NCBI GenBank assembly: GCA_027019175.1
Contig: JALUXB010000009.1
Coordinates: 34,311-98,310, forward strand
Length of the DNA stretch: 64,000 nucleotides
Source: Sulfurovum sp.
GTDB taxonomy: Bacteria > Campylobacterota > Campylobacteria > Campylobacterales > Sulfurovaceae
Direction of reading: 5' to 3'
A program made the position numbers and the translations under genes. Of this stretch, positions 14,759 through 31,508 are shown piece by piece. The stretch's first letter is position 1, and the number at the start of each line of letters is the position of its first letter. A model generated the notes under the pieces. That model saw only the letters and a program-made list of their open reading frames with translations, was not told where the DNA came from and did no database searches.

Positions 14759-14768
14759 AAAACATTTT

Positions 14769-16400
14769 CTAAAAAAAGAGCAACTGAATGATGTTCAGAA
14801 TGAACATTGTAATAAATCCTACTTTATAGACCATCATTTCATTACGCTCAATAAATGATGTGTGGCGGTCAAAATAGGGCTGTACTTTGTCAGGATTGTC
14901 AATTTCATAGAGCATTTCCGAATAGTTGTGGTAGCGCTTGTCCGGATCGGTCTCGATGGCACGCAGAATCACACTCTCCAGCCAGTGCGGTATTTTCGGG
15001 TTGAGCTTACTCGGATGCTTCGCATCTTTCTCGAAACCCGGAGTCTGGAACGGTTCTATTTCTCCAAACGGGAACTTCTGTGTCAATGCCTCGTAGAGTG
15101 TCACCCCTATGGCATAAATCTCTGTCTGTTCGGTAATCGGTGCCTGCTTGAAACGCTCCGGCGCAAGATAGGAAGGTGTACCCGCCCGCGTGACTGTAGA
15201 GTAGGCTTCGGTAATACTGCCAAAATCAACCATTTTGAAAACAATCTTCTCTTTTCGTTTGGTCACAATAATATTTTCAGGTTTGATATCGCCGTGTACC
15301 AGGTTGAACTTAATGAGGTACTGCGACATCTTCAGTAAAAAGTGCGCCAGTTCCACCCCAAGGTCAACACTCAGCGGCTTTTTGGAAATATATTCTTTAA
15401 GAGAAACTCCCTCGATGTATCGCATAATATAATAACGGTGTGTCCTCTTTTTCGGAATAACCGCTTTGGGGAAGAATCCGGCTTTCAAGCGGTTGGCCAT
15501 CCAGACTTCTTTCACAAAAAGATCCAGCATCACCTCATCGTCAATCGCTTCATGGGGTGCAAATTTAATCACATACTGCACCCCTTTCTTCTCACACAGC
15601 CAGGTTCTGTTGTTCTGTATCAACGGTTTGATAAGACGATAACCGTCTATCTCTTCACCTTTTTTGTACTGTTCCTGAATAATCAGGTCTGTCTGCTTCA
15701 GCTTCAGCCTCGGGTCAAGCTCTTTGATTTCAATGACCACGGCAGTGGTATCGTCAGGCAGGTCATCGTTGTGCTTTTTGCTTGCTTTTTTAACCAGAAA
15801 CGAAGCACCCACTTTGATGCCCTCTGCAAGTTCTTCGGGGGAGAGTTCATTGTAAAGCCCATCACTACAGAGCAGAATGCGGTCTCCTGCCTGCAAATTG
15901 TTCTCAAAGTAGTAAGGCTCTACACTCTCTTCAAGCCCGATGGCTGCTGTCAGCACATTCTCCATCCCTTCCTCATCCATCGCATGATCGGAGGAGAGCT
16001 GAGCAAACTGTCCGTTACGGGAGAGGTAGATACGGCTGTCACCCACATTGGCACCGTAAAGCCTGTTTCCTTCAATGACCACCAGTGTAAGGGTTGTCAC
16101 AAGCTCCTGCCGTTCATACTGCTCCATCGATTCAAGATAGAGCACACGGTTGATATTGTCAATAAAATGGCGAATGGACTTTTCCATACTCCAGCTTCGC
16201 GGACGGTTCTTCAGCGACTGCACCAGAAACTGCGCGGTACGCTTTGCCGCTTCGGCACCATGCATTGATGAGCCTACTCCATCGCAGACCACCGCAACAG
16301 TAATGTTCTCCATTACTTTGACTTCGAAATAATCATCGCCTTTAAGCTGCGTACCTTTGGCCAGCGTAAATCCGCTGGTTTCAATATTTTCTTTAGACAT
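14769..16400 (-). CDS. Bifunctional PP2C phosphatase / Hanks Ser-Thr kinase with C-terminal TM
   Basis: VCDGVG, NVGDSRIY, LLCSDGL, DDTT (PP2C); IKF, HGDIKPEN, DFG, GTPSYLAPE (kinase); hydrophobic C-terminus. Confidence 0.92.
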   Translation of the reverse strand: MSKENIETSGFTLAKGTQLKGDDYFEVKVMENITVAVVCDGVGSSMHGAEAAKRTAQFLVQSLKNRPRSWSMEKSIRHFIDNINRVLYLESMEQYERQELVTTLTLVVIEGNRLYGANVGDSRIYLSRNGQFAQLSSDHAMDEEGMENVLTAAIGLEESVEPYYFENNLQAGDRILLCSDGLYNELSPEELAEGIKVGASFLVKKASKKHNDDLPDDTTAVVIEIKELDPRLKLKQTDLIIQEQYKKGEEIDGYRLIKPLIQNNRTWLCEKKGVQYVIKFAPHEAIDDEVMLDLFVKEVWMANRLKAGFFPKAVIPKKRTHRYYIMRYIEGVSLKEYISKKPLSVDLGVELAHFLLKMSQYLIKFNLVHGDIKPENIIVTKRKEKIVFKMVDFGSITEAYSTVTRAGTPSYLAPERFKQAPITEQTEIYAIGVTLYEALTQKFPFGEIEPFQTPGFEKDAKHPSKLNPKIPHWLESVILRAIETDPDKRYHNYSEMLYEIDNPDKVQPYFDRHTSFIERNEMMVYKVGFITMFILNIIQLLFF

Positions 16401-16429
16401 CTACCTTCCCCGTTTCTTGGTTACACCCC

Positions 16430-16484
16430 ATTATAACATTGCCTTCAGCACTTTCAGACGTCCTGCCTGATTAAGATTTGTGCA
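16430..16484 (-). promoter_or_regulatory. Promoter of PP2C-kinase gene with hybrid operator
   Basis: TGT-TATAAT extended -10 on minus strand (16430-16438); TGATTAAGATTTGTGCA at 16468-16484, centre 41 bp upstream of the -10. Confidence 0.65.
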
Positions 16485-16534
16485 GTATATCTATCTGCTA
16501 TAATATGCACAACCCATTCCAAAAGGATATTTTA

Positions 16535-16807
16535 ATGCCCGGCAAAATAATGATCGCAGCACTATGCTGTACTGCCCTTACAATGGGTGCAGAAGACAAC
16601 AACCGTACCAAACAGGCACTTATTCAAAAACAGATTGAAAAACAGAAAGCGTTGGAGAAAAAATATGCTAAAGAACAACGATTCTATCAGGGAGATGAAT
16701 ATGACTTCAAGGGCAAAGAAGTAGACCCCGACATCCTCAAAGATGTCAAGCCTGTGGAACCCGACTATGAGCACACCAACGACTGGGGTGTTGCGGATAA
16801 TGAATGA
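16535..16807 (+). CDS. Small exported hypothetical protein
   Basis: AAAGGA RBS before ATG 16535, signal-like MPGKIMIAALCCTALTMGA, TGC-TATAAT at 16496-16504. Confidence 0.7.
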   Translation: MPGKIMIAALCCTALTMGAEDNNRTKQALIQKQIEKQKALEKKYAKEQRFYQGDEYDFKGKEVDPDILKDVKPVEPDYEHTNDWGVADNE

Positions 16808-16825
16808 TACAAAATCGTTTTAACA

Positions 16826-16900
16826 CGTTTCCCATGCTCTGCGTGGGAATGCATGCCTTAATCTTGCATAGTATGCTCCCACGCAAAGCATGAGAGCAAG
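16826..16900. repeat. Inverted doublet of TCGTTCCCA-family palindrome
   Basis: CGTTTCCCATGCTCTGCGTGGGAATGCAT followed by inverted ATGCTCCCACGCAAAGCATGAGAGCAAG. Confidence 0.75.
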
Positions 16901-16915
16901 AGAAAATTTTTATGC

Positions 16916-18196
16916 TTAAATAATTCCCCCTGCATTGGCACCCCATGTGGTTCTCCAGCGTGTTTTAACAAGCGAAATGGCACCGATGGCAATGAGTACA
17001 AGCCCCGCAAAAATAAAGAAACCGACACTGTAGCTGTCAAACGTCCCTTTCGCCCAGCCAAGTGTTTTGACAAGGAACGTACCGCCGATCCCGCCGGCTG
17101 CACCGATGAGTCCGGTCATAATACCGATATCTTTTCCGAAGCGCTGCGGTACGAGCTGGAAAACTGCACCGTTTGCCATTCCAAGATTGGCCATGATCAA
17201 AAAGAGTACACCAATGGCAACCCAGAACGGAAGCTGTACCGCACCGCTGAGCGCCACCAGTGCAGCAACAACACCAAAAAAGATATAAAGTGCTTTGACC
17301 CCACCCATTTTGTCGGCAATACCACCGCCTACAGGACGCAACACTGCACCGGCAAAGATGGTAAGGGCTCCAAAGTAACCGGCAATGACCTTGACATTCG
17401 GTTCATGGAAAACACTCAATCCAAAAGCACTCATATCTGCCTGATACGTATTCATCAGGTAGACTTTCATATAGTTTGCAAATCCTACAAATCCGCCGAA
17501 GCTGACAGCATAAAAGAGCATAAACCACCAGCTGTCACGGTCTTTGAGCAGTTTCCAGTAATCACCCAGCTTTTTGGGACGCGGCTTGTAAACTGATTCA
17601 GGTGCATCTTTTGCCATTAAAATATAAATGATCAGCACGATGAACGAGAGCAATCCTCCAACAAGGAAAACTGCTTCCCATCCCCAAATTTCTGCGATTT
17701 TAGGTGCAAAAAGGAAGTCAACGACCACACCGATATTCCCTGCTCCGGCAATACCGAGTACGATCCCCTGAAGCTTGGGCGGATACCACTGTCCTGCCTG
17801 CGGCAGTGCCACCGCAAAGGATGCACCGGCAAAACCAAGCCCAAGTGCAACAACCAACAATTCATTATAGGTAATGCTCTCTCCTCTTGAATACGCATAG
17901 AAGAGTGATGCAATCACGATAACCTGTGCGATGATGGCAGTTTTCTTCGGTCCAATCTTGTCGACACCGAAACCAAGTACAATACGCAGCAGTGCACCTG
18001 CCAAAATCGGGATGGAAAGCAGTGTTGCAATCTGCCCTGCACTCAATGCTGTACCGTGATGAGCCAGTGATTCGTTGATCTCGGTTGCCAAAGGCCCGAG
18101 CATCGTCCATACCATAAAACTGAAATCAAAGTAGAGAAATGCCGCAAAAAGTGTCTTTGCATCTCCCTGCCCTTTAAGCGCCTTGAAGTTCGCCAT
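16916..18196 (-). CDS. narK: Nitrate/nitrite MFS transporter (NarK/NasA family)
   Basis: FAGASFAVALPQAGQWYP, GIAGAGNIG, LRPVGGGIADKMGG, GMANGAVFQLVPQRF nitrate-signature motifs. Confidence 0.93.
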   Translation of the reverse strand: MANFKALKGQGDAKTLFAAFLYFDFSFMVWTMLGPLATEINESLAHHGTALSAGQIATLLSIPILAGALLRIVLGFGVDKIGPKKTAIIAQVIVIASLFYAYSRGESITYNELLVVALGLGFAGASFAVALPQAGQWYPPKLQGIVLGIAGAGNIGVVVDFLFAPKIAEIWGWEAVFLVGGLLSFIVLIIYILMAKDAPESVYKPRPKKLGDYWKLLKDRDSWWFMLFYAVSFGGFVGFANYMKVYLMNTYQADMSAFGLSVFHEPNVKVIAGYFGALTIFAGAVLRPVGGGIADKMGGVKALYIFFGVVAALVALSGAVQLPFWVAIGVLFLIMANLGMANGAVFQLVPQRFGKDIGIMTGLIGAAGGIGGTFLVKTLGWAKGTFDSYSVGFFIFAGLVLIAIGAISLVKTRWRTTWGANAGGII

Positions 18197-18225
18197 TCTT
18201 GCTCCTTAAACAAATTAATGTACGA

Positions 18226-18280
18226 ATTATACTGTAACGTTATGGCATTCATTACCTTTATATTGATTATTTTTTAATCA
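18226..18280 (-). promoter_or_regulatory. narK promoter with 17-bp operator
   Basis: TATAAT on minus strand 18226-18231; TGATTATTTTTTAATCA at 18264-18280, centre 41 bp upstream. Confidence 0.78.
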
Positions 18281-18340
18281 TATTTTTTTACCTGTTTTAG
18301 AGCCCAATCATAGACGATAAGCTTATATAGATCAAACAAT

Positions 18341-18396
18341 TGATTATTTTTTAATCATATTTTTCTCTGCAATTCTACATCTGTTTTGGATATAAT
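18341..18396 (+). promoter_or_regulatory. nirA promoter with 17-bp operator
   Basis: TGATTATTTTTTAATCA at 18341-18357; TATAAT 18391-18396, centre 42 bp upstream. Confidence 0.78.
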
Positions 18397-18433
18397 GACG
18401 CAGATTGAATAACGACAGGAGCAGCGTGATTAT

Positions 18434-20353
18434 ATGGAAGCATTAGCAAAAGCCAAAGAGGCAAGAAGCAAAAAGCTCAATAAAGTAGAAACGACCAAAG
18501 CGCTTAAAGACCCGATGGAGGTCTACAAGCGTTTGGAAGAGATCGCAGCAGCAGGTTATGAGGGATTAAGCAAAGAGGATTCCGCCTACTTTCTAAAGTG
18601 TTTCGGACTCTTCGATAAGGGCGAGGACTTTATGTTACGTGTGCGTATCCCCGGCGGGCAGCTGACCAATGCACAAGCGATACGCATCGGTGAAGTGGCA
18701 AAGGAGTACGGCAATGACTACATCGATATTACCACCCGTATGCAGGTGGAACTGCGCTATTTGCAGATTGCTGACATTGCAAAGGTACTCAAAGCGCTTA
18801 AAGAGGCAGGCATCTCCACCTTCCAGACCGGGGTGGACAACCCGCGAAACATCGTCACCGACCCGCTTGACGGTATCGCTTATGACAACATCATCGAGTC
18901 CATGCCCATCTTGACGCAGCTTCAGGAGATCTTCCTCGAAAATCCCGAGTGGATCTCTGCCCTGCCTCGAAAATTCAATACCGGTATTTTGGGAAGCCTG
19001 AGCAACTCCTGTAACATCTTCGGGCATGACTGTAACTTCGTACTCGCCAACAAAGACGGTAACTTTGGCTTCAACGTCTACCTTGGTGCCCGTGTCGGTG
19101 TACAGGCACGGGATGCTGACCTCTTCGTTACTCCCGAAGAGGTACCCGTATTTTTCAAAGCCCTGCTAAACGTTTTCAAAACCTACGGCTACCGCGACAA
19201 CCGCAACAAGAACCGTCTGCACTTTCTGCTGCAGGATGTGGGTATTCCTGCATTCATCGAAGCGGTCAAAGAGGAGGCCGGACTCTCCTTTGCCTCAGGC
19301 GGCATGACACTGGTGCAGTCGCAAAACATCGCGCTGGGTGCCAACCGTGTGCTGCTTAAAAACGGCACCTATGCCTACAAGGTCATCGTCCCCTCCGGTA
19401 TCTTCAGCGGAACGGATATGATCGCAGCAGCCAAAGCGGCACAAAGCTACGGCAGCGGCGACATCCGTCTCAGCTACGACCAGAACCTTTTCATTATCAA
19501 CATTGACAAAGAGAAGCTTGATGCCTTTGAGAACGATCCGCTCATTGGCAAATATGCCCAGTACAACAACCTCTATTTTCAGGATATGATTGCCTGTGCG
19601 GGAACACAGACCTGCAGCTATGGCGTCATCCCCAACAAACCCGATGCCATCGAGATGGCACACTTCCTCAACTCCGAAGTGCCCATTGCCAATGCCAACG
19701 TACGTATGAACTGGTCAGCCTGCCCCAAAGGGTGCGGCGTACACGGCATTGCCGACATCGGTTTTGAGGGATGCAAGGCAAAAGATGCCGAGGGCAACCG
19801 TGTAGATGGTGTACACCTCTTTATGGGCGGCAAGATCACCCGCCAAGCCAAAGAGGCGCACATCCTGCACAAAGCACTGCCGATCGACGAAGCCAAACAC
19901 CATGTCAAGTATCTTCTGAAAACATATGCGGTATACAAAGAGCGCGGAGAGACCTTCGAGAGTTTTGAGACACGCTTTTTCAGCAAGAACTACAGCTACC
20001 AGGCGATCAGCTTCTTTACCAAGATCAACTACATCCTCCGCGACAAACTGGGACTGGATGTAATGTTTGAGCTTGACAAAGAGCCCAAAAGTGGACGCCG
20101 TGAAGAGTACGAACTCTTTACCTTCGGACTCAAACTCTTCAAACTCCTCACGGGAGAGAAGCGTTTTGAAGCTGTCACAGGACTTGCTCCCACACTCGCA
20201 CGCCCAAGAAAGATCAAACGGGATGAAGTAAGCAAGCTCAACCCGAAAGTCCCGCCGAAACTCTCTGAAGTCATCTACAATATGACCCATGAGAACAAGA
20301 GTGAGCGTGCGCAGGTCTTCTCGGAGTTGCTTATGGCACTTAAAGAGGTGTAA
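18434..20353 (+). CDS. nirA: Ferredoxin-nitrite reductase with C-terminal extension
   Basis: MLRVRIPGG, ITTRMQVELR, ALPRKFN, siroheme/FeS ligands ACAGTQTC and SACPKGCG; nitrate-cluster context. Confidence 0.9.
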   Translation: MEALAKAKEARSKKLNKVETTKALKDPMEVYKRLEEIAAAGYEGLSKEDSAYFLKCFGLFDKGEDFMLRVRIPGGQLTNAQAIRIGEVAKEYGNDYIDITTRMQVELRYLQIADIAKVLKALKEAGISTFQTGVDNPRNIVTDPLDGIAYDNIIESMPILTQLQEIFLENPEWISALPRKFNTGILGSLSNSCNIFGHDCNFVLANKDGNFGFNVYLGARVGVQARDADLFVTPEEVPVFFKALLNVFKTYGYRDNRNKNRLHFLLQDVGIPAFIEAVKEEAGLSFASGGMTLVQSQNIALGANRVLLKNGTYAYKVIVPSGIFSGTDMIAAAKAAQSYGSGDIRLSYDQNLFIINIDKEKLDAFENDPLIGKYAQYNNLYFQDMIACAGTQTCSYGVIPNKPDAIEMAHFLNSEVPIANANVRMNWSACPKGCGVHGIADIGFEGCKAKDAEGNRVDGVHLFMGGKITRQAKEAHILHKALPIDEAKHHVKYLLKTYAVYKERGETFESFETRFFSKNYSYQAISFFTKINYILRDKLGLDVMFELDKEPKSGRREEYELFTFGLKLFKLLTGEKRFEAVTGLAPTLARPRKIKRDEVSKLNPKVPPKLSEVIYNMTHENKSERAQVFSELLMALKEV

Positions 20354-20366
20354 GCACTTTGCGAAG

Positions 20367-20394
20367 CGTTGAGTGTTGAGCGCTGAGCGCTGAG
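20367..20394 (+). repeat. Degenerate heptamer tandem (CGYTGAG x4)
   Basis: CGTTGAG TGTTGAG CGCTGAG CGCTGAG directly after nirA stop. Confidence 0.8.
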
Positions 20395-20409
20395 AACTCA
20401 AAAGAATAA

Positions 20410-20552
20410 AGCTTTTGTGTTACTTTTGCACTTTTTGTGCAGATGCGGTTGCGCCCATATGTGCGAAGCACGGCGCAAAGAGCATCATCCGCACAATTGC
20501 AAAAGTAACGCTTTTGGCGCTACCTTTTCTAAAAAGGTAGCAAAAACGCCAA
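20410..20552. repeat. Nested-hairpin intergenic element
   Basis: GTTACTTTTGCA/TGCAAAAGTAAC outer stem, inner TTGTGC/GCACAA, GCGCC/GGCGC, GTGC-GAA-GCAC; second hairpin GCTACCTTTT/AAAAGGTAGC. Confidence 0.75.
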
Positions 20553-20614
20553 ACTTCAAAAAGAGTTTATGTTACAAGACTATAATTGAATAATAGCAAA
20601 AAAGGAAACAACAG

Positions 20615-22222
20615 ATGGCAGTGGAACCATTGAGCAAACACACACCGTTAGAGAGCTTCATCAACCACAAGAATGACACCGGTATGCAGTGCGGCAACTA
20701 CACCATCGATATTCCCGAGCTCAAGCCCGGTGAGCAGTACCGTTTTCACTTCGATGCCACCGCCTGTGTGGGCTGTCACTGCTGTGAAGTGGCCTGTAAC
20801 GAACAAAATGCCAATCCCGACGAGATCAAATGGCGCCGTGTGGGTGAGATGGAGACCGGCTCTTTCCCTGACACACTCCAGCTTTTCAACTCGATGAGCT
20901 GTAACCACTGCATCGACCCCGAGTGTCTGCGCGGCTGCCCTACCGAGAGCTACATCAAACTTGACAACGGGATTGTCTGGCATGATGACCCAAGCTGCAT
21001 CGGATGCCAGTACTGTACCTGGAACTGTCCCTATGAGGTGCCCGTCTTCAACCCTGACCGCGGTATCGTCACTAAATGCCATATGTGTGTGGACAAGCTC
21101 GAGGCAGGACAGACACCTGCGTGTGTCCAGGCGTGTCCCGGCGGAGCCATCGAAATAGAAGCTGTCAATGTCGAGCAGTGGCTTTCAGAAGATATGGCAA
21201 AAGAGGGAGTCGCTCCCCATCTGCCTGACATCAATATCACCAAACCCACCACACGTTACACCCTGCCTGATCTTCCTGAAGGTCAGGAGATACGTCCGGC
21301 TGATGAACACATCCTCAAGCCTGCCCATGCCGAATTGCCGCTTGTCTTTATGACGGTGCTGACACAGGTTTCGGTGGGGGCTTTTCTGGCACTGTTTTTG
21401 GGGCAGCTGCTCTACTCGCTTGGCTTCAACCTGCCAAAACCAAACCTTATTATGGCGATATTGGCATTCCTGCCTGCAGCCATAGGCCTGCCGCTTTCGG
21501 CAATGCACCTTGGACGCCCCGGTAAAGCGATGAGTGCGATGAAGAACTGGAAAACTTCATGGCTCAGCCGTGAAGCGATCGCTTTGGGTGCCTATACCGG
21601 TCTGGCAACCGTTGTAGCCGGACTCTACTTCCTTGATGTCGGCGGTGTTCTTCTGCTCCTGCTTGAAGTCCTGACCCTTGGCATCGGACTCTACGGTATC
21701 TACGCGCAGTCGATGATTTACCGCATCAAAGCACGTCCAAGCTGGAACCGCAAGAGTACCACCAAACGCTTCTTCGGTTCAGGCTATGTCGGCTTCCTGC
21801 TTATCGCCACCGCTCTGCTCGCAAGCAACGGCGCGCAGGGTGCAACTGTACTGCTTGCCGTCACGCTGCTTGCAGGCATGGGGCAGGCACTGGTGATCTT
21901 TGAGGAGGTGATGTTCTACCGCCACCTCGACAAAGAAGATCCGCTCTACTATCAGTACAACCGAAGCCGCATCCTGCTGCAGGAGCACTTTGGAAACATC
22001 AAGAAGTTCCGCATATGGTCACTGGCAGCCTTTGGGCTGGCACTGCCGCTTTTTGCTATTCTCTTTACCGCCAGTGGTTTAACAGGTTTAGCAATTGCCA
22101 CACTTGTCATCGCCACACTCGGTGCCTTGGCATCCGAACTTGCCGGACGCTACCTTTTTTACCGTACTGTGGTACCATTGGGACTTGCGGGGAACTTCTT
22201 TGCGGGAAACCAGCGACATTGA
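20615..22222 (+). CDS. Fused 4Fe-4S (DmsB-like) plus DmsC/NrfD-like membrane anchor subunit
   Basis: CVGCHCCEVAC, CNHCIDPECLRGCP, CIGCQYCTWNCP, KCHMC..CVQACP then ELPLVFMTVLTQ, SAMHLGRP, SWLSRE and multiple TM helices. Confidence 0.88.
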   Translation: MAVEPLSKHTPLESFINHKNDTGMQCGNYTIDIPELKPGEQYRFHFDATACVGCHCCEVACNEQNANPDEIKWRRVGEMETGSFPDTLQLFNSMSCNHCIDPECLRGCPTESYIKLDNGIVWHDDPSCIGCQYCTWNCPYEVPVFNPDRGIVTKCHMCVDKLEAGQTPACVQACPGGAIEIEAVNVEQWLSEDMAKEGVAPHLPDINITKPTTRYTLPDLPEGQEIRPADEHILKPAHAELPLVFMTVLTQVSVGAFLALFLGQLLYSLGFNLPKPNLIMAILAFLPAAIGLPLSAMHLGRPGKAMSAMKNWKTSWLSREAIALGAYTGLATVVAGLYFLDVGGVLLLLLEVLTLGIGLYGIYAQSMIYRIKARPSWNRKSTTKRFFGSGYVGFLLIATALLASNGAQGATVLLAVTLLAGMGQALVIFEEVMFYRHLDKEDPLYYQYNRSRILLQEHFGNIKKFRIWSLAAFGLALPLFAILFTASGLTGLAIATLVIATLGALASELAGRYLFYRTVVPLGLAGNFFAGNQRH

Positions 22223-22255
22223 CAAAGAAGATATACTGTACTATAATATGTACAG
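22219..22255 (+). promoter_or_regulatory. yefM-yoeB sigma70 promoter and operator
   Basis: TTGACA 22219-22224, 17-bp spacer, TATAAT 22242-22247; inverted CTGTAC/GTACAG flank the -10. Confidence 0.85.
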
Positions 22256-22279
22256 GATTTAGAACATAAAGGAGTTGTA

Positions 22280-22534
22280 ATGCAGGTTGTCAACTTTACA
22301 GAAGCAAGAAACAATTTAAAAGCACTCTGTGATACCGTCTATGAGAACAGTGAAGAGGTCATCATCAATCGCAAAAACGGAGAAAATGTAGTCATTCTTT
22401 CATTGGAGAGCTATAATGCACTACAGGAGACTGCTTACCTGCTGGCGTCTGCCAAAAACAGAGAACGTCTGCTTAGTTCACTTGAGCATGCCCGTACAGG
22501 CAAAGTAACACAAAGAGAATTAGCAGAGTCATGA
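22280..22534 (+). CDS. yefM: YefM/Phd family antitoxin
   Basis: NFTEARNNLK, VIINRKNG, YNALQETAYLLASAKNRERL. Confidence 0.93.
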   Translation: MQVVNFTEARNNLKALCDTVYENSEEVIINRKNGENVVILSLESYNALQETAYLLASAKNRERLLSSLEHARTGKVTQRELAES

Positions 22535-22791
22535 ATCTTCTTTTCACAGAGGAAGCATGGGAAGACTACTGCTATTGGCAGCAGTACGATAAAAAGTTAC
22601 TCAAAAAGGTAAACAGCCTTTTAAAAGAGATACAAAGAAACCCGTTTGAGGGTACCGGAAAACCTGAAGCACTAAAACATGAACTTCAGGGATGTTGGTC
22701 ACGGCGCATTAATCAGGAACACCGCCTGGTCTATGAGGTCTTGGACACACAGATAAATATCTTGGCTTGCCGGTATCATTACGGTAATTAG
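22531..22791 (+). CDS. yoeB: YoeB/Txe family toxin
   Basis: AWEDYCYWQ, GTGKPEALKHELQGCWSRRINQEHRLVY, CRYHY; ATGA overlap with antitoxin. Confidence 0.95.
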   Translation: MNLLFTEEAWEDYCYWQQYDKKLLKKVNSLLKEIQRNPFEGTGKPEALKHELQGCWSRRINQEHRLVYEVLDTQINILACRYHYGN

Positions 22792-22793
22792 TA

Positions 22794-25127
22794 ATGGAGA
22801 ATAATATGAGTCTCATAGACAAAGCAAAAAACTTTCTCGGCTTCGACATCAAAGAGGACAAATACGCCCTCGTCGACGACCCAATATTTGGTAAAGTTGC
22901 CAAAGCCAAAGCCCCTGACAAGTGGGTACGAAGCACCTGCGGCTACTGCGGTGTAGGCTGCGGCATGTACATCGGTGTCAAAGACGGTAAAGCGGTCTAC
23001 TCCAAAGGCGATCCGCTCCATCCGGTCAATATGGGCACACTCTGCCCAAAAGGCTTGAGTGAGCACAGAATGGTACGTGCCGACAACCGTATACCTACGC
23101 CGATGCTCAAAAAAAACGGCACGCTTCAGCCTGTTTCATGGGATGAAGCATTCAGCCATACTGCAGAAGAATTCAAACGTATTCAACAACAGTACGGCAA
23201 AGGTGCGGTTGCTGTGGTCTCTACTGGTCAACTACTAACAGAAGAGTTCTATGCGCTGGGCAAATTTGTGCAGCTTGGGCTTGAAACAAACAACTATGAC
23301 GGCAATACCACACTCTGTATGGCAAGTGCCGTCATGGGATACAAACAAACCTTTGGCTCAGATGGTCCTACCGGATGTTATGAGGACTTTGAAAAAGCAG
23401 ATGTCATTATGCTTATCGGTGCAAACATTGCCGACAATCACCCTATTTTGAAGCTGCATATTGCCAAAAACAAAAAAACCACAGGGAAAAAACCAACCAT
23501 TATTGTTGTTGACCCCAGAAAATCCAAAACCTCACAGATGGCAGACATTTTTGTGCCACTTAAACCACGCTCCGATCTGGCGCTCATCAATGGTCTGTGC
23601 TACATCATCATGGAACAGGGATGGGAGGATGAAAACTTCATCAAAGAGCGCACCAACGGCTACAGAGAATTCAAAAAACACATCATGGAGAACTACCCGC
23701 CACAAGAGGTTGCTCACATCACCGGCATCGATGTCAAGGAGCTTTACAACCTTGCACGCATTTACGCCGGTGCGGATGCGGTAATGAGTGCCTGGACCAT
23801 GGGTGTCAACCAAAGCTCCATCGGAACCGATACGGTCTCTGCCATCTGTAACCTTGCACTCATCACCGGCAACCTTGGCAAAGAGGGAGCTTCACCTATG
23901 TCCATCACCGGACAGTGCAACGCCATGGGTACACGGGAGTTTGGCTTTACCTCATCCATCCCCGGATACCGCAACTACGCCAGTGAAAGTGACCGAAGAG
24001 AGTTTGCCGAGATCATCAGTGTATCCGAAGAGCTCATCCCCACTGCAAGAGGCTACGCCTACCCGCAGATTATCGAGGCGATCAACCGCGGCGAGATCAA
24101 AGCACTCTGGGTTGTTGCCACCAATCCACTGGTAAGCTACCCTGATCAAAACGGACTTAGAGAAGCACTCAAAAAACTTGACATGCTTGTGGTACAGGAT
24201 GCCTTCATGTCCGATACGGCACAAATAGCCGATGTGGTCTTCGCCGCAGCGACATGGAGCGAAAAAGAGGGTTGCTACACCAACAGTGAGCGCCGCTGCA
24301 ACTATGCCAAAAAAGCCATAGAACCTCTTGAACAGAGCAAGGCAGACTTCTACATTGTCAAAGAGTTCTCCAAATATTTCGGCGACAAACACGACCTGCT
24401 CTTCAAAAATCTCAATACCCCACGAGATACTTTCGAGGAGATCAAACGCGTCAGCAAAGGCAGACTCTGCGACTACAGCGGTATGAGCTACGAACTCATT
24501 GAGGAGCTTGGCGGCATCCAGTGGCCATGTAATGACAAAGCCCCCAAAGGCACCAAACGCCTCTACTCCGACGATATGCCATGTCCTACCCCTGATGGCA
24601 AAGCACAGCTGCTGCCGGTTGACTGGGTACCGCTGAGTGAAATGCAGTGCAAAGAACTGCCTGTCATGCTCAATACCGGACGAACGGTAGAACAGTTCCA
24701 TACCCGTACCAAAACCGGTACCATCGGCATCCTCGATGCACTGGCTCCCGAAGCATGGATAGACATTAATCCCAAAGATGCTGCCAAACTCAAAGTCAAA
24801 AGCGGAGACCGCATCGCCATTTCCGGCAGCCGCGGGCGTGTAGAGGATGTCATCGTCAAAGTGAGCGAAACCGTACGGGAAGGCAACATCTTCGTACCGT
24901 TCCACTTTAACGAACAGCTTATCAATGCCGTTACTATCCCCGAGTTCGACCCCAAATCCTTCGAGCCAAACTACAAACAGTGTGCTGTACAGCTGCACTC
25001 CGAAGCGGTACCCGAAGGCATCGTCTATGAAGAGCTGGAAATCAGCGGCTACCTGGAGAATGTAAAAGTATACAAAGAGGAAGAGACGGCACAAAACGAT
25101 ATGGCTGCTGCAGAGGCGCAAAAATAG
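22794..25127 (+). CDS. Molybdopterin nitrate reductase catalytic subunit (assimilatory NasA/NarB-like, cytoplasmic)
   Basis: STCGYCGVGCG..GTLCPKG, NTTLCMASAV, SITGQCNAMG, LNTGRTVEQFHTRTKTG, EPNYKQCAV; no Tat signal. Confidence 0.9.
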   Translation: MENNMSLIDKAKNFLGFDIKEDKYALVDDPIFGKVAKAKAPDKWVRSTCGYCGVGCGMYIGVKDGKAVYSKGDPLHPVNMGTLCPKGLSEHRMVRADNRIPTPMLKKNGTLQPVSWDEAFSHTAEEFKRIQQQYGKGAVAVVSTGQLLTEEFYALGKFVQLGLETNNYDGNTTLCMASAVMGYKQTFGSDGPTGCYEDFEKADVIMLIGANIADNHPILKLHIAKNKKTTGKKPTIIVVDPRKSKTSQMADIFVPLKPRSDLALINGLCYIIMEQGWEDENFIKERTNGYREFKKHIMENYPPQEVAHITGIDVKELYNLARIYAGADAVMSAWTMGVNQSSIGTDTVSAICNLALITGNLGKEGASPMSITGQCNAMGTREFGFTSSIPGYRNYASESDRREFAEIISVSEELIPTARGYAYPQIIEAINRGEIKALWVVATNPLVSYPDQNGLREALKKLDMLVVQDAFMSDTAQIADVVFAAATWSEKEGCYTNSERRCNYAKKAIEPLEQSKADFYIVKEFSKYFGDKHDLLFKNLNTPRDTFEEIKRVSKGRLCDYSGMSYELIEELGGIQWPCNDKAPKGTKRLYSDDMPCPTPDGKAQLLPVDWVPLSEMQCKELPVMLNTGRTVEQFHTRTKTGTIGILDALAPEAWIDINPKDAAKLKVKSGDRIAISGSRGRVEDVIVKVSETVREGNIFVPFHFNEQLINAVTIPEFDPKSFEPNYKQCAVQLHSEAVPEGIVYEELEISGYLENVKVYKEEETAQNDMAAAEAQK

Positions 25128-25171
25128 CACCAAGTGTGCTATAATGCCGTACTTTTTTCAAGGAAACCGCC

Positions 25172-26632
25172 GTGGCAGAAACTATCGTCAAAACACAGAA
25201 ATTCATCCTCAAACTTTTTCCGGAGATTATGGTCAAGGGTGCATCAGCAAAGAAGCAGATGGTCAACCAGCTCTACCAAAACCTCCTCACACTCTTAAAA
25301 CCGATAGATGATGCAATAGAGATCAAAAAATTTTCTGACAAGATCGAAGTGGTCACCCCCATCGAAAAGGTTGATACGGTACGAGAAATACTCCTGAACA
25401 CACCAGGTATCGAACAGGTACTTGAGGCGCTACAGTTCAACAAAACCGATACTCTTGAAGCTATCAAAGAGAAGGTTGCCCAAACTGTTGCCAAAGAGAT
25501 AGCAGGTAAAAGCTTTGTTGTACGTGCCAAGCGTACCGGCACCCACCCTTTCAACTCTTCCGAAATGGAACGGGTCGTCGGTGGGTACACGCTGGCTCAC
25601 ACTGATGCAAAAAAAGTCGACCTGCACAATCCTGATGTAACGGTACGCATCGAACTGATCAACCAGCAGCTCAATATCATCACTGCCAAGTATGAAGGCC
25701 TGAGCGGGTTCCCCATTGGTACACAGGGGGACATCCTCTCTCTGATGTCCGGGGGGTTTGACTCTACCGTAGCAAGTTTTTTGACAATGAAGCGCGGTAT
25801 CAAAACACATTTTATCTTTTTCAATCTTGGCGGTGCTGCACATGAGATCGGGGTAAAGCAGGTAGCATGGTATCTTTGGAGCAAATTTGGCGCTTCCCAC
25901 CGTGTCAAGTTTGTTACTATTCCCTTTGAAGATGTCGTTACTGAAATCTTTCGCTCTACACACGAAAGCTATATGGGAGTTACCCTCAAGCGGCTGATGC
26001 TCATGGCTGCCGAGAAAATTGCCGATAATATGGAGATAGATGCCCTACTCACAGGCGAAAGTGTCGCACAGGTCTCCAGCCAGACACTGCGCAACCTTGC
26101 ACTTATCGACCAGGCAACCGACAAACTGGTACTTCGCCCCCTTGCTACCGTCAACAAACCGGAAATCATCCGCATTGCCACACAGATCGGTACACGCCGC
26201 TTTGCAGAGAATATGCCTGAATACTGCGGTGTTATCTCTAAAAATCCTATTACACACGGTTCTTTCAAGCGGATGGAACGCGAAGCCAAACATTTTGATT
26301 ACAGCGTTCTTGATAAGGCTGTAGCAAATGCCAAAACAATTTATGTCGATGAAATCGTCGAAGACATTACTGACAATGCCCCTATTGATATCGTTACCTC
26401 ACCCAATCCTGAGAACGATGTCATCATTGACATCCGTGCAGATGAAAAAACTGTAGAAACCCCCTGTGAAACCATTAAGATCCCTTTTCACCAGCTCAAA
26501 ACAGAATTTAAAAAACTGCCTAAAGAAAAGAACTACCTGCTCTACTGTGACAAAGGTGTACTAAGCCAGCTTCATGCACAATACCTTAAAGATGCCGAAG
26601 GTGCCGATGTGAAGGTATACAGACCGGAATAA
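25172..26632 (+). CDS. thiI: tRNA 4-thiouridine synthase with rhodanese domain
   Basis: THUMP domain, SLMSGGFDS PP-loop, MPEYCG, C-terminal LLYCDKG rhodanese. Confidence 0.95.
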   Translation: MAETIVKTQKFILKLFPEIMVKGASAKKQMVNQLYQNLLTLLKPIDDAIEIKKFSDKIEVVTPIEKVDTVREILLNTPGIEQVLEALQFNKTDTLEAIKEKVAQTVAKEIAGKSFVVRAKRTGTHPFNSSEMERVVGGYTLAHTDAKKVDLHNPDVTVRIELINQQLNIITAKYEGLSGFPIGTQGDILSLMSGGFDSTVASFLTMKRGIKTHFIFFNLGGAAHEIGVKQVAWYLWSKFGASHRVKFVTIPFEDVVTEIFRSTHESYMGVTLKRLMLMAAEKIADNMEIDALLTGESVAQVSSQTLRNLALIDQATDKLVLRPLATVNKPEIIRIATQIGTRRFAENMPEYCGVISKNPITHGSFKRMEREAKHFDYSVLDKAVANAKTIYVDEIVEDITDNAPIDIVTSPNPENDVIIDIRADEKTVETPCETIKIPFHQLKTEFKKLPKEKNYLLYCDKGVLSQLHAQYLKDAEGADVKVYRPE

Positions 26633-26635
26633 CAT

Positions 26636-26657
26636 GTAGGGTGCGTAATCACGCACC
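26636..26657 (+). repeat. GTAG-type REP palindrome
   Basis: GTAG-GGTGCGT-AATC-ACGCACC after thiI. Confidence 0.9.
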
Positions 26658-26721
26658 GACAGTGAGCAAATTCTGCATTGTTTGATTGAAGCGAAGTTTA
26701 AAATTTAAGTCATTCCTACAC

Positions 26722-27573
26722 TTACTCACACAGCCGTTTCAAATCGCCCAGATCAAACAGCAGCAACGTCTCACTCTGCATTCCGAGCAGCTCATTGGAA
26801 AACCCGTCTTTGGAAAAAAGTGCATAGATATCGGCATGAATTCCTGACTGCTCTGCTTTCGCCTTGAGTTTGTTCAGTTCATTCTTACATACTTTTCGGT
26901 CTTTGTATTTACACTCGCCAAGAATGATTTTCTTCTCACTTGTAACAGCAAGAATATCGAACTCACTATGATGATTCCAGTAACTCCCATGACTGAGCAG
27001 AGGGCTGCGCGATTGAAAATAATCGACCAACAGATCATTACAGAGCTGTTCAAATACCAAAGTACGGAGACGCTCATAGTGTGCTTCAAAGTTCGAGAGG
27101 AATGCTGCAGTATTCCCTTCCAATAATGCCTTTTTGTAAGGAAAAACAAACCCAAACCAGAAACGTAAAAAAGGCTGTTTAAATCGCAATTTGTCCTGAA
27201 TCCGGTAATGGCGAAGCTCTTTTTTGAGTTTATGTTTGGGATGCACTTTCAAGGGCTGTTCCCGGCTTGCTTCAATACGCAGGATACCAAGAGAGATAAG
27301 TTCCGTAACGATTTTTCCTCCTGTCTCCTCACTGAGTTTCGCTTTTCGCAGTACCGAATAGTACTTTCCATCCCCTTTTGCAACAGCCTGCAGTACATCA
27401 CAGTAAGGAGCTTCAAGCAGATAGGAGGGTGTAACAATCTGCTGTACTTCTGCAAAATTCGTTATAAACTTGGAATGCAGCAATGCCGTCATACTTTCGA
27501 AAAAATCCAGTTCAACCTTCTCCTCCACTCCGCCAAAAACTGAAAAATATTCAATAGCACTCTCAAGCGGCAA
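26722..27573 (-). CDS. DUF234-type protein (winged helix plus PD-(D/E)XK-like C-terminus), no ATPase domain
   Basis: YFSVFGG, FLRFWFGFVFP, SYWNHHSEFDILAV..ILGECKY; start uncertain (frame stays open to 27648). Confidence 0.7.
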   Translation of the reverse strand: MPLESAIEYFSVFGGVEEKVELDFFESMTALLHSKFITNFAEVQQIVTPSYLLEAPYCDVLQAVAKGDGKYYSVLRKAKLSEETGGKIVTELISLGILRIEASREQPLKVHPKHKLKKELRHYRIQDKLRFKQPFLRFWFGFVFPYKKALLEGNTAAFLSNFEAHYERLRTLVFEQLCNDLLVDYFQSRSPLLSHGSYWNHHSEFDILAVTSEKKIILGECKYKDRKVCKNELNKLKAKAEQSGIHADIYALFSKDGFSNELLGMQSETLLLFDLGDLKRLCE

Positions 27574-27663
27574 ATAGGGATGATAGTGACAAAAATGCTT
27601 AAATGGTTCTTTAATAAGGCTGTTTCCTCTCTTTCTTTTCCATATAGTTTAACATAAGTTTGA

Positions 27664-27701
27664 TATAATGGTTTTAAGCATTAATGATTATTTTTTAAGC
27701 A
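27664..27701 (+). promoter_or_regulatory. Promoter of NtrC-like gene with downstream operator variant
   Basis: TATAAT 27664-27669; TGATTATTTTTTAAGCA at 27685-27701 (1 mismatch) between -10 and RBS. Confidence 0.7.
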
Positions 27702-27728
27702 TTAAGAGGAAGGAACACTTCACCCTTT

Positions 27729-28463
27729 ATGGAAACATTTTATACAGATTCACCGCAGGTTCAGCAAATTATTCAAGGATTGAACCTAACCAGAACACTC
27801 TTTGTCTCTTCTATCGTCATAGGGGAACCCCATATTGGAAAGAAAACACTTGTGACACATCTCTTCCCCGATATTCCAGTTGTCTCAGGAGAAAATCAGG
27901 ATGAAGTCGAAGCCATACTCGAACACTCTGACGAGCTGATCATTACCAATTTTGAAAAACTTTCCAATAAAGAGAACCTCGTTTTCGACAACAAACGCAT
28001 CATTGCCACAGCAGACTATATCGGTAACCAAAAGACCATCGACAGCTTATTTGCTTTTATTTACATGATGCCTACATACAAGGAACGTCCTGAAGATCTC
28101 AAGCATCTTAAAACCCGCTTCCTTGAAGAGGCGGCAGCGACCTTGATGCTTGATGCTTCATCCTATACGCTTTCACAGCTTCCTACTGACCTGACACAGA
28201 ACAGCAAAAGCCTCAAACGTACCATATACCATTACCTTATGAGTCGTAATATGAGCAAAAAAGAGATTGAAGAGACACTGTATACCTATTTTATTGAGCA
28301 TCTTGAAGGCAATAACGGATACAAAGAGTATGTGGGAATGTATGAACGTCCTCTCATTAAGGCAGGGCTTGAGAAATACGGCTCTCAACTAAAACTTTCC
28401 GAAATTCTCGGTATCAACCGCAATACACTAAGGAAGAAGATCCATGAGCACGGCATCGATTGA
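27729..28463 (+). CDS. NtrC-like Fis-HTH regulator, degenerate AAA+, no receiver domain
   Basis: Degenerate Walker A GEPHIGKK, RIIATAD, MPTYKERPEDL (cf. LPPLRERREDI), HTH ERPLIKAGL..LGINRNTLRKKI; no GAFTGA. Confidence 0.8.
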   Translation: METFYTDSPQVQQIIQGLNLTRTLFVSSIVIGEPHIGKKTLVTHLFPDIPVVSGENQDEVEAILEHSDELIITNFEKLSNKENLVFDNKRIIATADYIGNQKTIDSLFAFIYMMPTYKERPEDLKHLKTRFLEEAAATLMLDASSYTLSQLPTDLTQNSKSLKRTIYHYLMSRNMSKKEIEETLYTYFIEHLEGNNGYKEYVGMYERPLIKAGLEKYGSQLKLSEILGINRNTLRKKIHEHGID

Positions 28464-29145
28464 TTTCCGCCCCTTTGTAGAGTGGGACAACAACCCCTTC
28501 ATTCTCTTCGACCCAAAAGGAAAGATCCTCTACCTCAACAACAGTGCGGAGATCCTGCTTGGATATGTCTCCAAAAAGGAGCTTTTCGACCTTGCACTTG
28601 CCTACGCACCGCAAAACTTCGGCTATAAAACGACAAGTATCTCTCTGCGTTACGAAGCTTTCAACTTCTACTCTATCACTGTAGGGTACGAAAATGAAGA
28701 GCAGCTTGCCATACGTTTCTACAATGCGCCAAGGCTCAGAAATCATACACCGGTGGAGAAAGAGAAACTCACTCTTACTGACATTAACCTGCTGCTTGAA
28801 GCCAATATTGCCCTCTTTAAAACAAAAAACAGCAATCCGCTGCAACTGTTGACCGATCCGGATATGCCACAGCTTAGAATCGACCAGAACCGCTTTTCAA
28901 AACTGCTGCGTAAAGTACTCGAATCATTCCGCGCATCCGACTCCATACGCATTGAACTCAAACTCCTTGTCGGGGAGCATGTCATTATCGATGAGCAAAA
29001 AATCTCCATTGCCCAGCTTTCCACTACGGCAAACGGACGCTATGTCGATAATGACAAGGAGATAAAAATACTTTCGGAAGAGTGCAATATCCGCAGTAAC
29101 CTCCAGGAATCCTCCATCAAACTCGAAATTCCGCTGATTGCATAG
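28444..29145 (+). CDS. PAS plus degenerate NtrB-like HATPase domain, lacking His-phosphotransfer domain
   Basis: PFILFDPKGKILYLNNSAEILLG (PAS); TDPDMPQLRIDQNRFSKLL and ANG remnants; no H-box. Confidence 0.6.
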   Translation: MSTASIDFRPFVEWDNNPFILFDPKGKILYLNNSAEILLGYVSKKELFDLALAYAPQNFGYKTTSISLRYEAFNFYSITVGYENEEQLAIRFYNAPRLRNHTPVEKEKLTLTDINLLLEANIALFKTKNSNPLQLLTDPDMPQLRIDQNRFSKLLRKVLESFRASDSIRIELKLLVGEHVIIDEQKISIAQLSTTANGRYVDNDKEIKILSEECNIRSNLQESSIKLEIPLIA

Positions 29146-29147
29146 AT

Positions 29148-29201
29148 TGATTAAAAAATAATCAGCTCCTTCCTCCATTTTCTTCTCCCGCGTGGTAAGA
29201 T
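29148..29201 (+). promoter_or_regulatory. amtB promoter with 17-bp operator
   Basis: TGATTAAAAAATAATCA 29148-29164 (exact reverse complement of the narK/nirA sites); TGG-TAAGAT extended -10 at 29193-29201, centre 40 bp upstream. Confidence 0.72.
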
Positions 29202-29236
29202 AACCTTTGTAAACCAAACACTACAAAGGACACAGC

Positions 29237-30544: not shown

Positions 30545-30577
30545 GGTTCTTCCCTGACAATACAGTAAAAAGGATAG

Positions 30578-30922
<345 letters not shown>

Positions 30923-30929
30923 TTCTCTT

Positions 30930-30952
30930 TGGTAAAGGAGTCTCCTTTACCA
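30930..30952. terminator. Probable bidirectional terminator hairpin
   Basis: TGGTAAAGGAG-T-CTCCTTTACCA perfect inverted repeat between convergent glnB and yigZ. Confidence 0.7.
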
Positions 30953-30953
30953 T

Positions 30954-31508
30954 CTATCCCCTACTTTCCCAACTTCTTATCTTCTCTTCTGAAGCTGTAA
31001 TTTTCCATATTACTTTATTGACACCATACTTACGTTCGATATCTCTAATGCCATACTGCTTTAGTCTATAGAGTGTCCTGTCAATGGTACTGTAATCTGT
31101 GGTAAATGTATGTTCTACCCTTTTTTCATATGCACTAAGTTCCGCGTGTACCAAAACATCTTTGACCGCCTGCGCATAAGCACGAGCCATACCGCCTGTA
31201 CCAAGTTTTATTCCACCAAAATACCGGACGATCAATATCGCCACATTAACCAATTCCTCTCCACGCAGTACATTGAGCGCAGGCACTCCGGCACACCCCT
31301 TTGGCTCTCCGTCATCCGTACTTTGTTCTACAATTTGTTCAAATTCATTTAGATACCGGAGGGCATAGACAACATGGTTGGCTTTGGGATGCTCTTGCTT
31401 GAGTTTTTCCTGCAATCCTTCAAAATCTGCATAGGGTACCAAAAAACTCAGAAACTTGGAACGGTTTACCACCGTTTCGGTATGACAGGAGGTCAGGAGT
31501 GTTTTCAT
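30954..31508 (-). CDS. yigZ: YigZ/IMPACT family protein
   Basis: RSKFLS, HPKANHVVYA, DDGEPKGCAG, VRYFGGIKLGTGGMARAY. Confidence 0.92.
   Translation of the reverse strand: MKTLLTSCHTETVVNRSKFLSFLVPYADFEGLQEKLKQEHPKANHVVYALRYLNEFEQIVEQSTDDGEPKGCAGVPALNVLRGEELVNVAILIVRYFGGIKLGTGGMARAYAQAVKDVLVHAELSAYEKRVEHTFTTDYSTIDRTLYRLKQYGIRDIERKYGVNKVIWKITASEEKIRSWESRG

Follow-up and report, generated by a model that had tools for sequence, protein, structure and literature searches.

We describe a candidate nitrogen regulon of the campylobacterial genus Sulfurovum, recognised in a stretch of 64,000 nucleotides from a Sulfurovum sp. genome (assembly GCA_027019175.1, contig JALUXB010000009.1, positions 34,311 to 98,310; the window hereafter). 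We propose, with a probability of about 0.7, that the dyad TGATTA-N5-TAATCA is the operator of this regulon and that it is bound by P0001, a Fis/NtrC-type helix-turn-helix (HTH) protein encoded in the window, which would act on sigma70 promoters with the protein of the adjoining gene, P0002, as its partner. As part of the same proposal, the dyad would, with lineage-specific half-sites, serve most free-living Campylobacterales too. An initial annotation of this DNA had read the repeat as the target of one Fis-type HTH factor working on sigma70 promoters from about -53, and all the in-silico checks that it put forward lend support to that reading. As parts of the proposal, we infer from sequence that P0001 binds the dyad, in which direction it regulates, where transcription starts and how the signal reaches it.

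The copies of the dyad and its variants were all found again at the coordinates, and with the sequences, that the initial annotation had given them:

18264..18280, serving the minus strand: operator copy 1, narK-like promoter; exact TGATTATTTTTTAATCA, centre 18272
18341..18357, serving the plus strand: operator copy 2, nirA promoter; exact match, centre 18349
27685..27701: operator copy at the regulator's own gene; TGATTATTTTTTAAGCA, one mismatch, between the -10 box and the start codon
29148..29164: operator copy at the amtB-glnK promoter; exact as the reverse complement, centre 29156
16468..16484: 'hybrid' TGATTAAGATTTGTGCA; a single half-site, 41 bp to the TATAAT of the kinase gene

In the 64-kb window the pattern TGATT-N7-AATCA has three matches against 0.20 expected, and at least three arose in none of 100 shuffles. 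When up to three mismatches were allowed in the window scan, one match was added, that at 27685-27701. The hybrid at 16468, counted by the initial annotation as a member of the regulon, lies below any threshold, is missing from the genome scan with a position weight matrix (PWM) given below, and has no counterpart at the kinase gene in nine relatives; as the kinase-gene promoters of these relatives are without a site, we refuse it as a regulon member and regard this one half-site as probably non-functional. The FNR box (TTGAT-N4-ATCAA), the Fur box and NssR-type sites were considered from general knowledge and dropped on spacing. A scan of positions 14000-32000 with Rfam gave no match, which places the operator sites outside any known RNA element. 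Around the copy at the regulator's own gene, a direct repeat TTTTAAGCATTAA within 27672-27705 both flanks and overlaps the operator, and the half-site AAGCA in the same interval is that of TGCTTA/TAAGCA, the main operator of other families (G030, G031, G038).

The dyad is conserved well beyond the window. We compared 24 genomes of the same genus, with the reversed pattern as control, and found two to eight copies of TGATTA-N5-TAATCA in 23 of them (reversed control, 0-2); the copy-free genome, which is 80% complete, is also the one in which P0001 has no match. In seven congeners we read the DNA around the sites, and sites of the congeners precede narK, nirA, the regulator operon, amtB-glnK, a second amt-glnK pair, an oxidase-like operon, genes for OprD-like porins and the gene for an NrtA-like binding protein. 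An orthologous site stands before narK in all seven relatives examined and in two other families, and before amtB at all 19 loci of the genus and in four other families; the narK/nirA region of the congeners holds one or two sites, the pairs in G005, G019, G020 and G021 being 77-78 bp apart. All the readable glnA promoters of the genus have the dyad 75-83 bp before the start codon, often in degenerate form (TGGTTA-N5-TAGGCA, TGATTA-N5-TAAGCA) and sometimes as the consensus, and in four other families of Campylobacterales the motif precedes amtB-glnK, narK or glnA. The enrichment at nitrogen genes of relatives that the initial annotation had anticipated is thus seen at orthologous narK/nirA, amtB, second amt, regulator and glnA promoters; the glnA match that it expected at the same spacing is present in the genome studied here (40 bp) and in all congeners with readable upstream DNA. 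The flanks between the dyad and the -10 box have diverged freely, with the dyad and its offset kept down to about 55% regulator identity and also in other families, and we read such diverged flanks around a kept dyad as phylogenetic footprinting and not as recent shared ancestry.

The repeats might be chance A/T-rich matches, a recently duplicated promoter cassette or a mobile repeat with no regulatory role; the copies at 18264 and 18341, which lie 77 bp apart, have 26 identical bases in common, a possible sign of local duplication. We hold such an origin to be hardly credible, given that 0.2 copies are expected, that the reversed control is near zero, and that the flanks diverge where the dyad and its -10 offset persist across the range of regulator identity just given and in other families. 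Among the congeneric targets, the second amt-glnK pair (L025 5448-5583, L030, L032, L035, L040) is missing from the genome studied here. In the congeners, about 130-140 bp separate the operator from the start codon of the second amt, and behind the operator comes a conserved leader of about 100 nucleotides (…ccttttattcttttccaataagcgttacactat…), which could be a regulatory 5' untranslated region.

The placement of the dyad relative to the promoter is equally constant. Each distance is that between the dyad centre and the first base of the -10 hexamer:

18226..18231, minus strand: -10 box of the narK-like gene, TATAAT; 41 bp from centre 18272
18391..18396, plus strand: -10 box of nirA, TGGaTATAAT; 42 bp from centre 18349
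29196..29201, plus strand: -10 box of amtB, TAAGAT; 40 bp from centre 29156
27664..27669, plus strand: -10 box of the regulator operon, TATAAT; upstream of its operator
16430..16435, minus strand: TATAAT of the kinase gene; 41 bp from the centre of the hybrid

On re-measurement these values equal the distances of 41 bp (narK), 42 bp (nirA), 40 bp (amtB) and 41 bp (kinase gene) in the initial annotation, and its claim of a fixed spacing finds a sharp counterpart among 82 non-identical sites: TATAAT-like hexamers lie at 40 bp in 22 cases and at 41 bp in 15 (37/82), with 0-7 at each of the other offsets. The context TGGnTATAAT is common to the nirA and glnA promoters, and at the amtB offset relatives have TTATGAT or TACTAT instead of TAAGAT. 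If the -10 hexamer is set at -12 to -7, the dyad centre falls at about -52/-53 and the dyad covers about -61 to -44, upstream of any -35 position. Campylobacterota promoters are generally without a -35 box. No -35 hexamer is recognisable at the target promoters, and a scan with consensus -35 and -10 elements misses them, which is in keeping with -35-less promoters and neutral for our proposal.

At the regulator's own gene, the operator at 27685 lies 16 bp downstream of the TATAAT at 27664-27669, and the start codon of the open reading frame of 244 codons comes 28 bp after the operator. This -10 box is kept as ttgaTATAATg at loci L001-L004, L008 and L012, and in 18 of the 20 congeners 10-25 bp separate the dyad, which follows or overlaps the -10 box, from the regulator's start codon; the remaining two (L008, L009) have diverged dyad copies in the same position. 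The geometry is a repressing one and suggests autorepression. For the nitrogen genes we favour activation, combined with autorepression of the regulator's own gene, because the upstream offset is constant across genes and genera, as in activators that touch RNA polymerase. The same operator and regulator could also work with the opposite sign, P0001 repressing everywhere under nitrogen excess by blocking upstream A/T-rich contacts of the polymerase. Such a repressor would account for the site in a clearly repressing position at the regulator's own gene and for the strong TATAAT and TGGnTATAAT boxes of the targets, at which an activator is perhaps needless given that -35 boxes are generally lacking. 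Nevertheless, we consider general repression unlikely: repressor sites usually overlap the core promoter at variable offsets, whereas here the dyad stands upstream of the -35 region at an offset that varies by no more than 1-2 bp, and a fixed offset across genes, genera and families is the hallmark of activators in contact with RNA polymerase. Moreover, related NtrC proteins that lack the GAFTGA loop activate glnA-type genes (PMC10274813).

The candidate regulator and its partner are encoded by overlapping genes:

27729..28463, plus strand: P0001, candidate regulator, 244 aa; receiver-less, with an AAA+ remnant and a C-terminal Fis/NtrC-type HTH (…LGINRNTLRKKI…)
28444..29145, plus strand: P0002, 233 aa; overlaps the P0001 gene; PAS domain and degenerate histidine-kinase ATP-binding (CA) domain

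P0001 is the only bona fide Fis/NtrC-type HTH protein of the genome. A search of the whole genome with HTH_8 places it on top and returns one other match above the cut-off, a zinc-ribbon protein that we take to be DUF2089-like and so of another kind. The HTH of P0001 is matched in Pfam by HTH_8 (29.2 bits) and HTH_50 (33.2 bits), as well as by Fis and NtrC C-terminal models of NCBIfam. Fis sites follow the rule G-7, Y-4, A-3, an A/T centre, T+3, R+4, C+7. The PWM of our dyad has G and C at -7 and +7, Y at -4, A at -3 and A/T in the centre, as is the rule for sites of Fis and NtrC. Together with the dyad at its own promoter and its co-occurrence with the motif across the order, described below, these observations agree with the choice of this NtrC-like open reading frame as the factor in the initial annotation.

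A profile built from an alignment of 25 members of the P0001 family and searched against the PDB recovered the AAA+ domains of Aquifex NtrC1 and NtrC4, ZraR and FleQ, and also Fis. Its positions 2-45 correspond to the Walker A region (GEPHIGKK here, GESGVGK in relatives) and its positions 88-153 to the part from sensor I to the arginine-finger motif (ERPED); in the middle, 42 residues replace 91 of NtrC1, the GAFTGA loop is gone and the Walker B position reads DF or NF. Pfam gives P0001 no match to Response_reg, with residue 2 of the profile already pairing with residue 16 of the NtrC1 AAA+ construct, and none to PF00158. The AlphaFold2 model of P0001 has a predicted local distance difference test score (pLDDT) of 91.6, and its best Foldseek matches are ZraR, NtrC1, NtrX, PspF and VpsR, that is, an AAA+ fold of the enhancer-binding type. 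Judged by this profile and predicted fold, P0001 is an NtrC descendant stripped of the receiver and of the sigma54-contacting part of the AAA+ domain. Walker A is kept, and this suggests that P0001 binds a nucleotide but does not hydrolyse it, as is reported for the NtrC of Rhodobacter capsulatus in work cited in PMC10274813.

The initial annotation had inferred that the factor is not a sigma54 enhancer protein, and the distribution of RpoN argues the same. The RpoN DNA-binding domain (Sigma54_DBD) is absent from the 99.99%-complete genome studied here, under a search in which control genomes were positive, and 20 of the 24 congeners lack RpoN too, among them near-complete genomes that have the regulator and its sites. 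No genuine enhancer-binding protein was found in the genome either. As RpoN is absent, the NtrC-derived factor here cannot be a sigma54 enhancer protein, and the regulon is sigma54-independent; sigma54-type -24/-12 elements at the targets were dropped from consideration because the genome is without RpoN.

We then looked at the joint distribution of protein and motif in 151 Campylobacterales genomes that are at least 90% complete; the statistics ignore phylogeny. Of these, 114 have one copy of P0001, and 113 of the same genomes have P0002, also where the two genes are far apart. The 114 P0001-positive genomes hold 144 copies of TGATTA-N5-TAATCA (1.26 each) and the 37 negative ones hold four (0.11 each), with 0.10 copies of the reversed control per positive genome and 0.11 per negative genome. 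Contrasts within lineages follow the same line: in genus g10, G085 is without both protein and motif, and the five other members have both.

Beside TGATTA, the half-site variants TGCTTA, TGGTYA and TGTATA occur. TGCTTA-N5-TAAGCA is found in G031 in front of the regulator gene, in G030 in front of amtB and in G038 inside the nitrate cluster. The variant TGTATA-N5-TATACA occurs in the intergenic regions of the regulator gene and amtB or glnK in G035 and G040, directly before glnA in the same two genomes, and beside the regulator in G076, G090, G084 and G125; within family f9 it has 21, 17, 7, 5 and 4 copies in the genera with P0001 and 0-1 in g9, which is without P0001. The recognition helix varies along with the operator, NR[I/A/V]TL being found in the TGTATA-N5-TATACA lineages and NRNTL in those with TGATTA or TGCTTA. 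This co-variation is suggestive of binding by P0001, with which it is consistent, and is no proof of it.

The richest set of variant sites belongs to the f9 genome G125 (3.2 Mb; L091, L111-L123), with 21 TGTATA sites, three of them beside the regulator gene. The genes so marked are those for amtB, a NirB-like nitrite reductase, NirC, assimilatory nitrate reductase, NrtA-like and UrtA-like binding proteins, a NifA-like activator of the GAF type, ethanolamine ammonia-lyase, an Amt-GGDEF fusion and amino-acid binding proteins. As predicted from its sites, this target set is a textbook nitrogen-scavenging regulon, and its UrtA-like, NifA-like, nitrate and nitrite genes supply, under a variant operator, the ure and nif matches that the initial annotation had foreseen. 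One site lies 65 bp before the gene of the NifA-like activator (GAF, sigma54-activator and HTH domains), which suggests a cascade from a sigma70-type nitrogen regulator to a sigma54-dependent one.

The same survey bears on the possibility that the dyad is a real nitrogen operator bound by some other factor (of the Crp/Fnr family, of the MerR family like TnrA and GlnR, or another), P0001 and P0002 being mere members of the regulon. The boxes of TnrA and GlnR also have the 5-7-5 geometry, and the P0001 gene is without a nearby site in many families. Against such a factor, P0001 is the sole true Fis/NtrC-type HTH protein and the dyad obeys the rule of G-7/C+7 with an A/T centre; the motif falls to control level in the genomes without P0001 and P0002, including in contrasts within families; and the operator variants follow the clade with the changed helix and stay beside the regulator gene. 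We therefore regard a different binding factor as quite improbable.

Our proposal, with P0001 as the binding protein, also has to be set against several observations that weigh against it. The association of motif and protein is confounded by phylogeny and lifestyle, and the genomes that lack P0001 belong to few families, which may have lost nitrogen regulation altogether. The co-variation of helix and operator probably represents one or two evolutionary events, as the variant lineages seemingly form one clade, and family f13 is an exception to it, with NRVTL and TGATTA. In many families the regulator gene lies in a tol-pal/fabD housekeeping context without a site of its own. At the targets, the near-consensus -10 boxes are perhaps active in Campylobacterota without an activator, and the oxidase operon has a poor -10 at the canonical offset.

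The nature of the partner P0002 is read from its predicted fold only. It has a weak PAS match (TIGR00229) and no match in Pfam, including to HisKA and HATPase_c; CENP-N, which came up as its PDB match by sequence, was set aside as spurious, leaving no meaningful one. In the AlphaFold2 model (pLDDT 86), a PAS domain (about residues 1-95) leads straight into a CA-like domain (about 110-233), a helical hairpin being absent at the junction, and Foldseek pairs the model with PAS-histidine kinases and isolated CA domains, including that of NtrB (1R62; template modelling score 0.65 on the target). The N, G1 and G2 nucleotide-binding boxes could not be recognised by eye in the family alignment. Since P0001 has no receiver and P0002 has neither the histidine hairpin nor readable boxes, the predicted pair looks like NtrB/NtrC minus every phosphotransfer element.

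Hence, we posit the following mechanism. A dimer of P0001 would bind the dyad through its Fis-like HTH and, from -52, would recruit or stimulate sigma70 RNA polymerase at the -35-less promoters of glnA, amtB-glnK, narK, nirA-nasA and the oxidase-like operon, and it would repress its own operon from the dyad just downstream of the -10 box. P0002, as an obligate and co-transcribed partner, would relay the nitrogen status by protein-protein contact without phosphorylation, its input being perhaps PII/GlnK, which the regulon itself encodes, or 2-oxoglutarate. PII binds in NtrB the domain equivalent to the CA-like domain of P0002, which makes PII/GlnK the obvious candidate input. In its widest form this mechanism would have free-living Campylobacterales run their whole nitrogen regulon on a phosphorylation-free remnant of NtrB/NtrC, in which a pseudo-kinase senses PII/GlnK or 2-oxoglutarate and switches the P0001 dimer at -52; this wider statement is tentative, and we would give it somewhat less than even odds.

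In four other families a P0002 homologue is found elsewhere, directly downstream of and co-oriented with rpoD, the gene of the primary sigma70 factor (regions 1.2, 2, 3 and 4), and the P0001 homologue of these families lies apart from it, between tol-pal/slyD and fabD. The rpoD-P0002 loci are:

L131 3666-6210 (G038)
L132 3578-6135 (G128)
L133 1820-4366 (G047)
L135 1311-4210 (G027)

This linkage of P0002 with rpoD may be functionally meaningful and may point to a closer tie to the housekeeping sigma factor.

The extent of the regulon in the genome studied here (2.2 Mb, 46% G+C) was assessed by running over it a PWM built from 72 sites in relatives. It gave five matches of 24-29 bits, which lie before narK, nirA, amtB-glnK, the regulator's operon and a heme-copper-oxidase-like operon, and then a gap down to the next match at 13.6 bits; by this gap the regulon is small and sharply bounded. 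The oxidase-like operon carries the only further exact copy in the genome, at C47:23641, outside the window. It comprises two genes (C47:23641-26025), for a cupredoxin-like protein of 197 aa and for a divergent heme-copper-oxidase subunit I of 561 aa (Pfam COX1) that has no relative in the PDB by sequence and would be an oxidase or NO-reductase-like enzyme, and the operon's site is also kept in the congener G012 (L034). The 13.6-bit site is TGGTCAAATTTTAAGCA at C21:5-21, where the contig ends; it precedes glnA by 80 bp, and its centre is 40 bp from TGGtTATAAT. The starts of two contigs, C21:1-100 and C68:1-300, overlap as reverse complements across the glnA promoter, so that the assembly breaks at the glnA operator; the two contigs are probably adjacent.

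Searches with Pfam and NCBIfam identified the genes of the locus, and the assignments of the initial annotation around the sites (MFS transporter, NIR_SIR nitrite reductase, nitrate reductase, Amt, PII and the Fis-type HTH protein) hold in Pfam:

13520-14758: protoglobin-EAL fusion, with heme-sensor and cyclic di-GMP phosphodiesterase domains; adjoins the nitrate cluster
14769-16400, minus strand: PP2C-phosphatase/Ser-Thr-kinase fusion (Pfam/NCBIfam)
16916..18196, minus strand: target, narK-like nitrate/nitrite transporter of the major facilitator superfamily (Pfam MFS_1)
18434-20353, plus strand: target, ferredoxin-type nitrite reductase nirA (NIR_SIR; Pfam, NCBIfam)
20615-22222, plus strand: FeS/DmsC-like fusion (Pfam, NCBIfam)
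22280-22791, plus strand: yefM-yoeB toxin-antitoxin pair, inserted (Pfam, NCBIfam)
22794-25127, plus strand: molybdopterin assimilatory nitrate reductase (Pfam, NCBIfam)
between the nitrate cluster and P0001: ThiI and DUF234 genes (Pfam, NCBIfam)
29237-30544, plus strand: target, amtB (Pfam Ammonium_transp)
30581-30922, plus strand: target, glnK/PII (Pfam P-II)

Within the nitrate cluster (18434..25127) the nirA promoter is the only one with a site. The yefM-yoeB pair splits the FeS/DmsC-like gene from that of the molybdopterin nitrate reductase; the relatives examined have both reductase genes without the insert. Sulfurovum and two other families have the PP2C/kinase fusion behind narK, and several genomes leave no gap between the two genes (L038, L055 and L058 were examined), which points to co-transcription; in these genomes the fusion is thus probably transcribed together with narK and so a member of the regulon through the narK operator and not through a site of its own.

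Campylobacterota include dominant primary producers at hydrothermal vents, in sulfidic sediments and in oxygen-minimum zones. To our knowledge, their control of nitrogen assimilation is essentially undescribed, with no nitrogen regulator assigned. Our proposal would explain how nitrogen uptake can be controlled without a textbook NtrB/NtrC system, and supplies an operator, a candidate regulator pair, a core regulon and a promoter architecture. The core would comprise glnA, amtB-glnK, the genes of nitrate/nitrite uptake and reduction, and porins, to which larger genomes would add urea-type transport, ethanolamine lyase and a NifA-like activator. A pair without receiver, phosphorylatable histidine or sigma54 would be a natural end-point of NtrBC reduction and thereby bears on how two-component systems and enhancer-binding proteins evolve into one-step sigma70 activators, and the motif can help to annotate nitrogen-responsive genes in genomes assembled from metagenomes. 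A search of the full-text literature, which did not cover subscription journals, where earlier work may exist, yielded no prior description of the motif or the regulator. A large comparison of proteobacterial regulons excluded the epsilonproteobacteria because they lack orthologues of NtrC and of the other transcription factors that it targeted (PMC5343134).

The proposed regulon may be compared with several known systems. The activating sites of Bacillus TnrA are centred at about -50, and the TnrA/GlnR boxes read TGTNA-N7-TNACA. Like our dyad, these are 17-bp inverted repeats of the 5-7-5 type. They serve amtB (nrgA), glnA and the genes for nitrate and nitrite, with an activator position some 50 bp ahead of promoters of the sigma-A type. 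The variant TGTATA-N5-TATACA comes close to the TnrA/GlnR box; the TGATT of Sulfurovum does not fit TGTNA, a comparison of half-sites beside which no search aimed at a TnrA/GlnR homologue was made. TnrA and GlnR are unrelated factors of the MerR family under the control of glutamine synthetase. The likeness thus looks like functional analogy and not homology. Fis has a recognition helix almost identical to that of P0001 (GINRGTLRKKL as against GINRNTLRKKI), the family profile matches Fis residues 28-96, and the dyad fits the site rule of Fis given above. Fis, however, is a nucleoid protein of 98 aa whose sites, with a core of 15 bp, are degenerate and abundant, whereas P0001 carries an AAA+-derived N-terminal domain of 190 aa and has five to six sites of high information.

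With the classical NtrB/NtrC system the proposed regulon shares the regulator-then-kinase-like gene order and a core of targets, namely glnA, amtB-glnK, nitrate/nitrite assimilation and the regulator's own operon (Leyn et al. 2016, PMC5343134). The classical sites, TGCACC-N5-GGTGCA, have the same 17-bp 6-5-6 geometry with G/C at +/-7 and differ in the half-site, which here is TGATTA. Unlike the classical system, the one described here has no sigma54, no -24/-12 promoters, no distant enhancer action and no phosphorelay, and instead a single site fixed at -52. Further parallels are the GAFTGA-less NtrC proteins of R. capsulatus and Caulobacter crescentus, which act on sigma70 promoters, as well as NtrX and the VpsR of Vibrio cholerae (PMC10274813). 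In the accounts given there and in the references therein, the GAFTGA-less NtrC proteins control glnA and nitrogen genes through the housekeeping polymerase. P0001 has in common with this group the descent from enhancer-binding proteins, the loss of the L1 loop and the retention of a Fis-type HTH. The members of that group have a receiver, phosphorylation by a true NtrB/NtrY kinase and a near-full AAA+ domain, whereas P0001 has no receiver, has lost about 50 residues of the AAA+ core together with Walker B, has a partner without a histidine domain and would recognise a different operator. Since sigma70-dependent, GAFTGA-less NtrC proteins are known from Alphaproteobacteria, and VpsR from Vibrio, the principle is not new; what differs here is the extent of the reduction, the single Fis-like site fixed at -52, the sequence of the operator and the taxon in which they are found.

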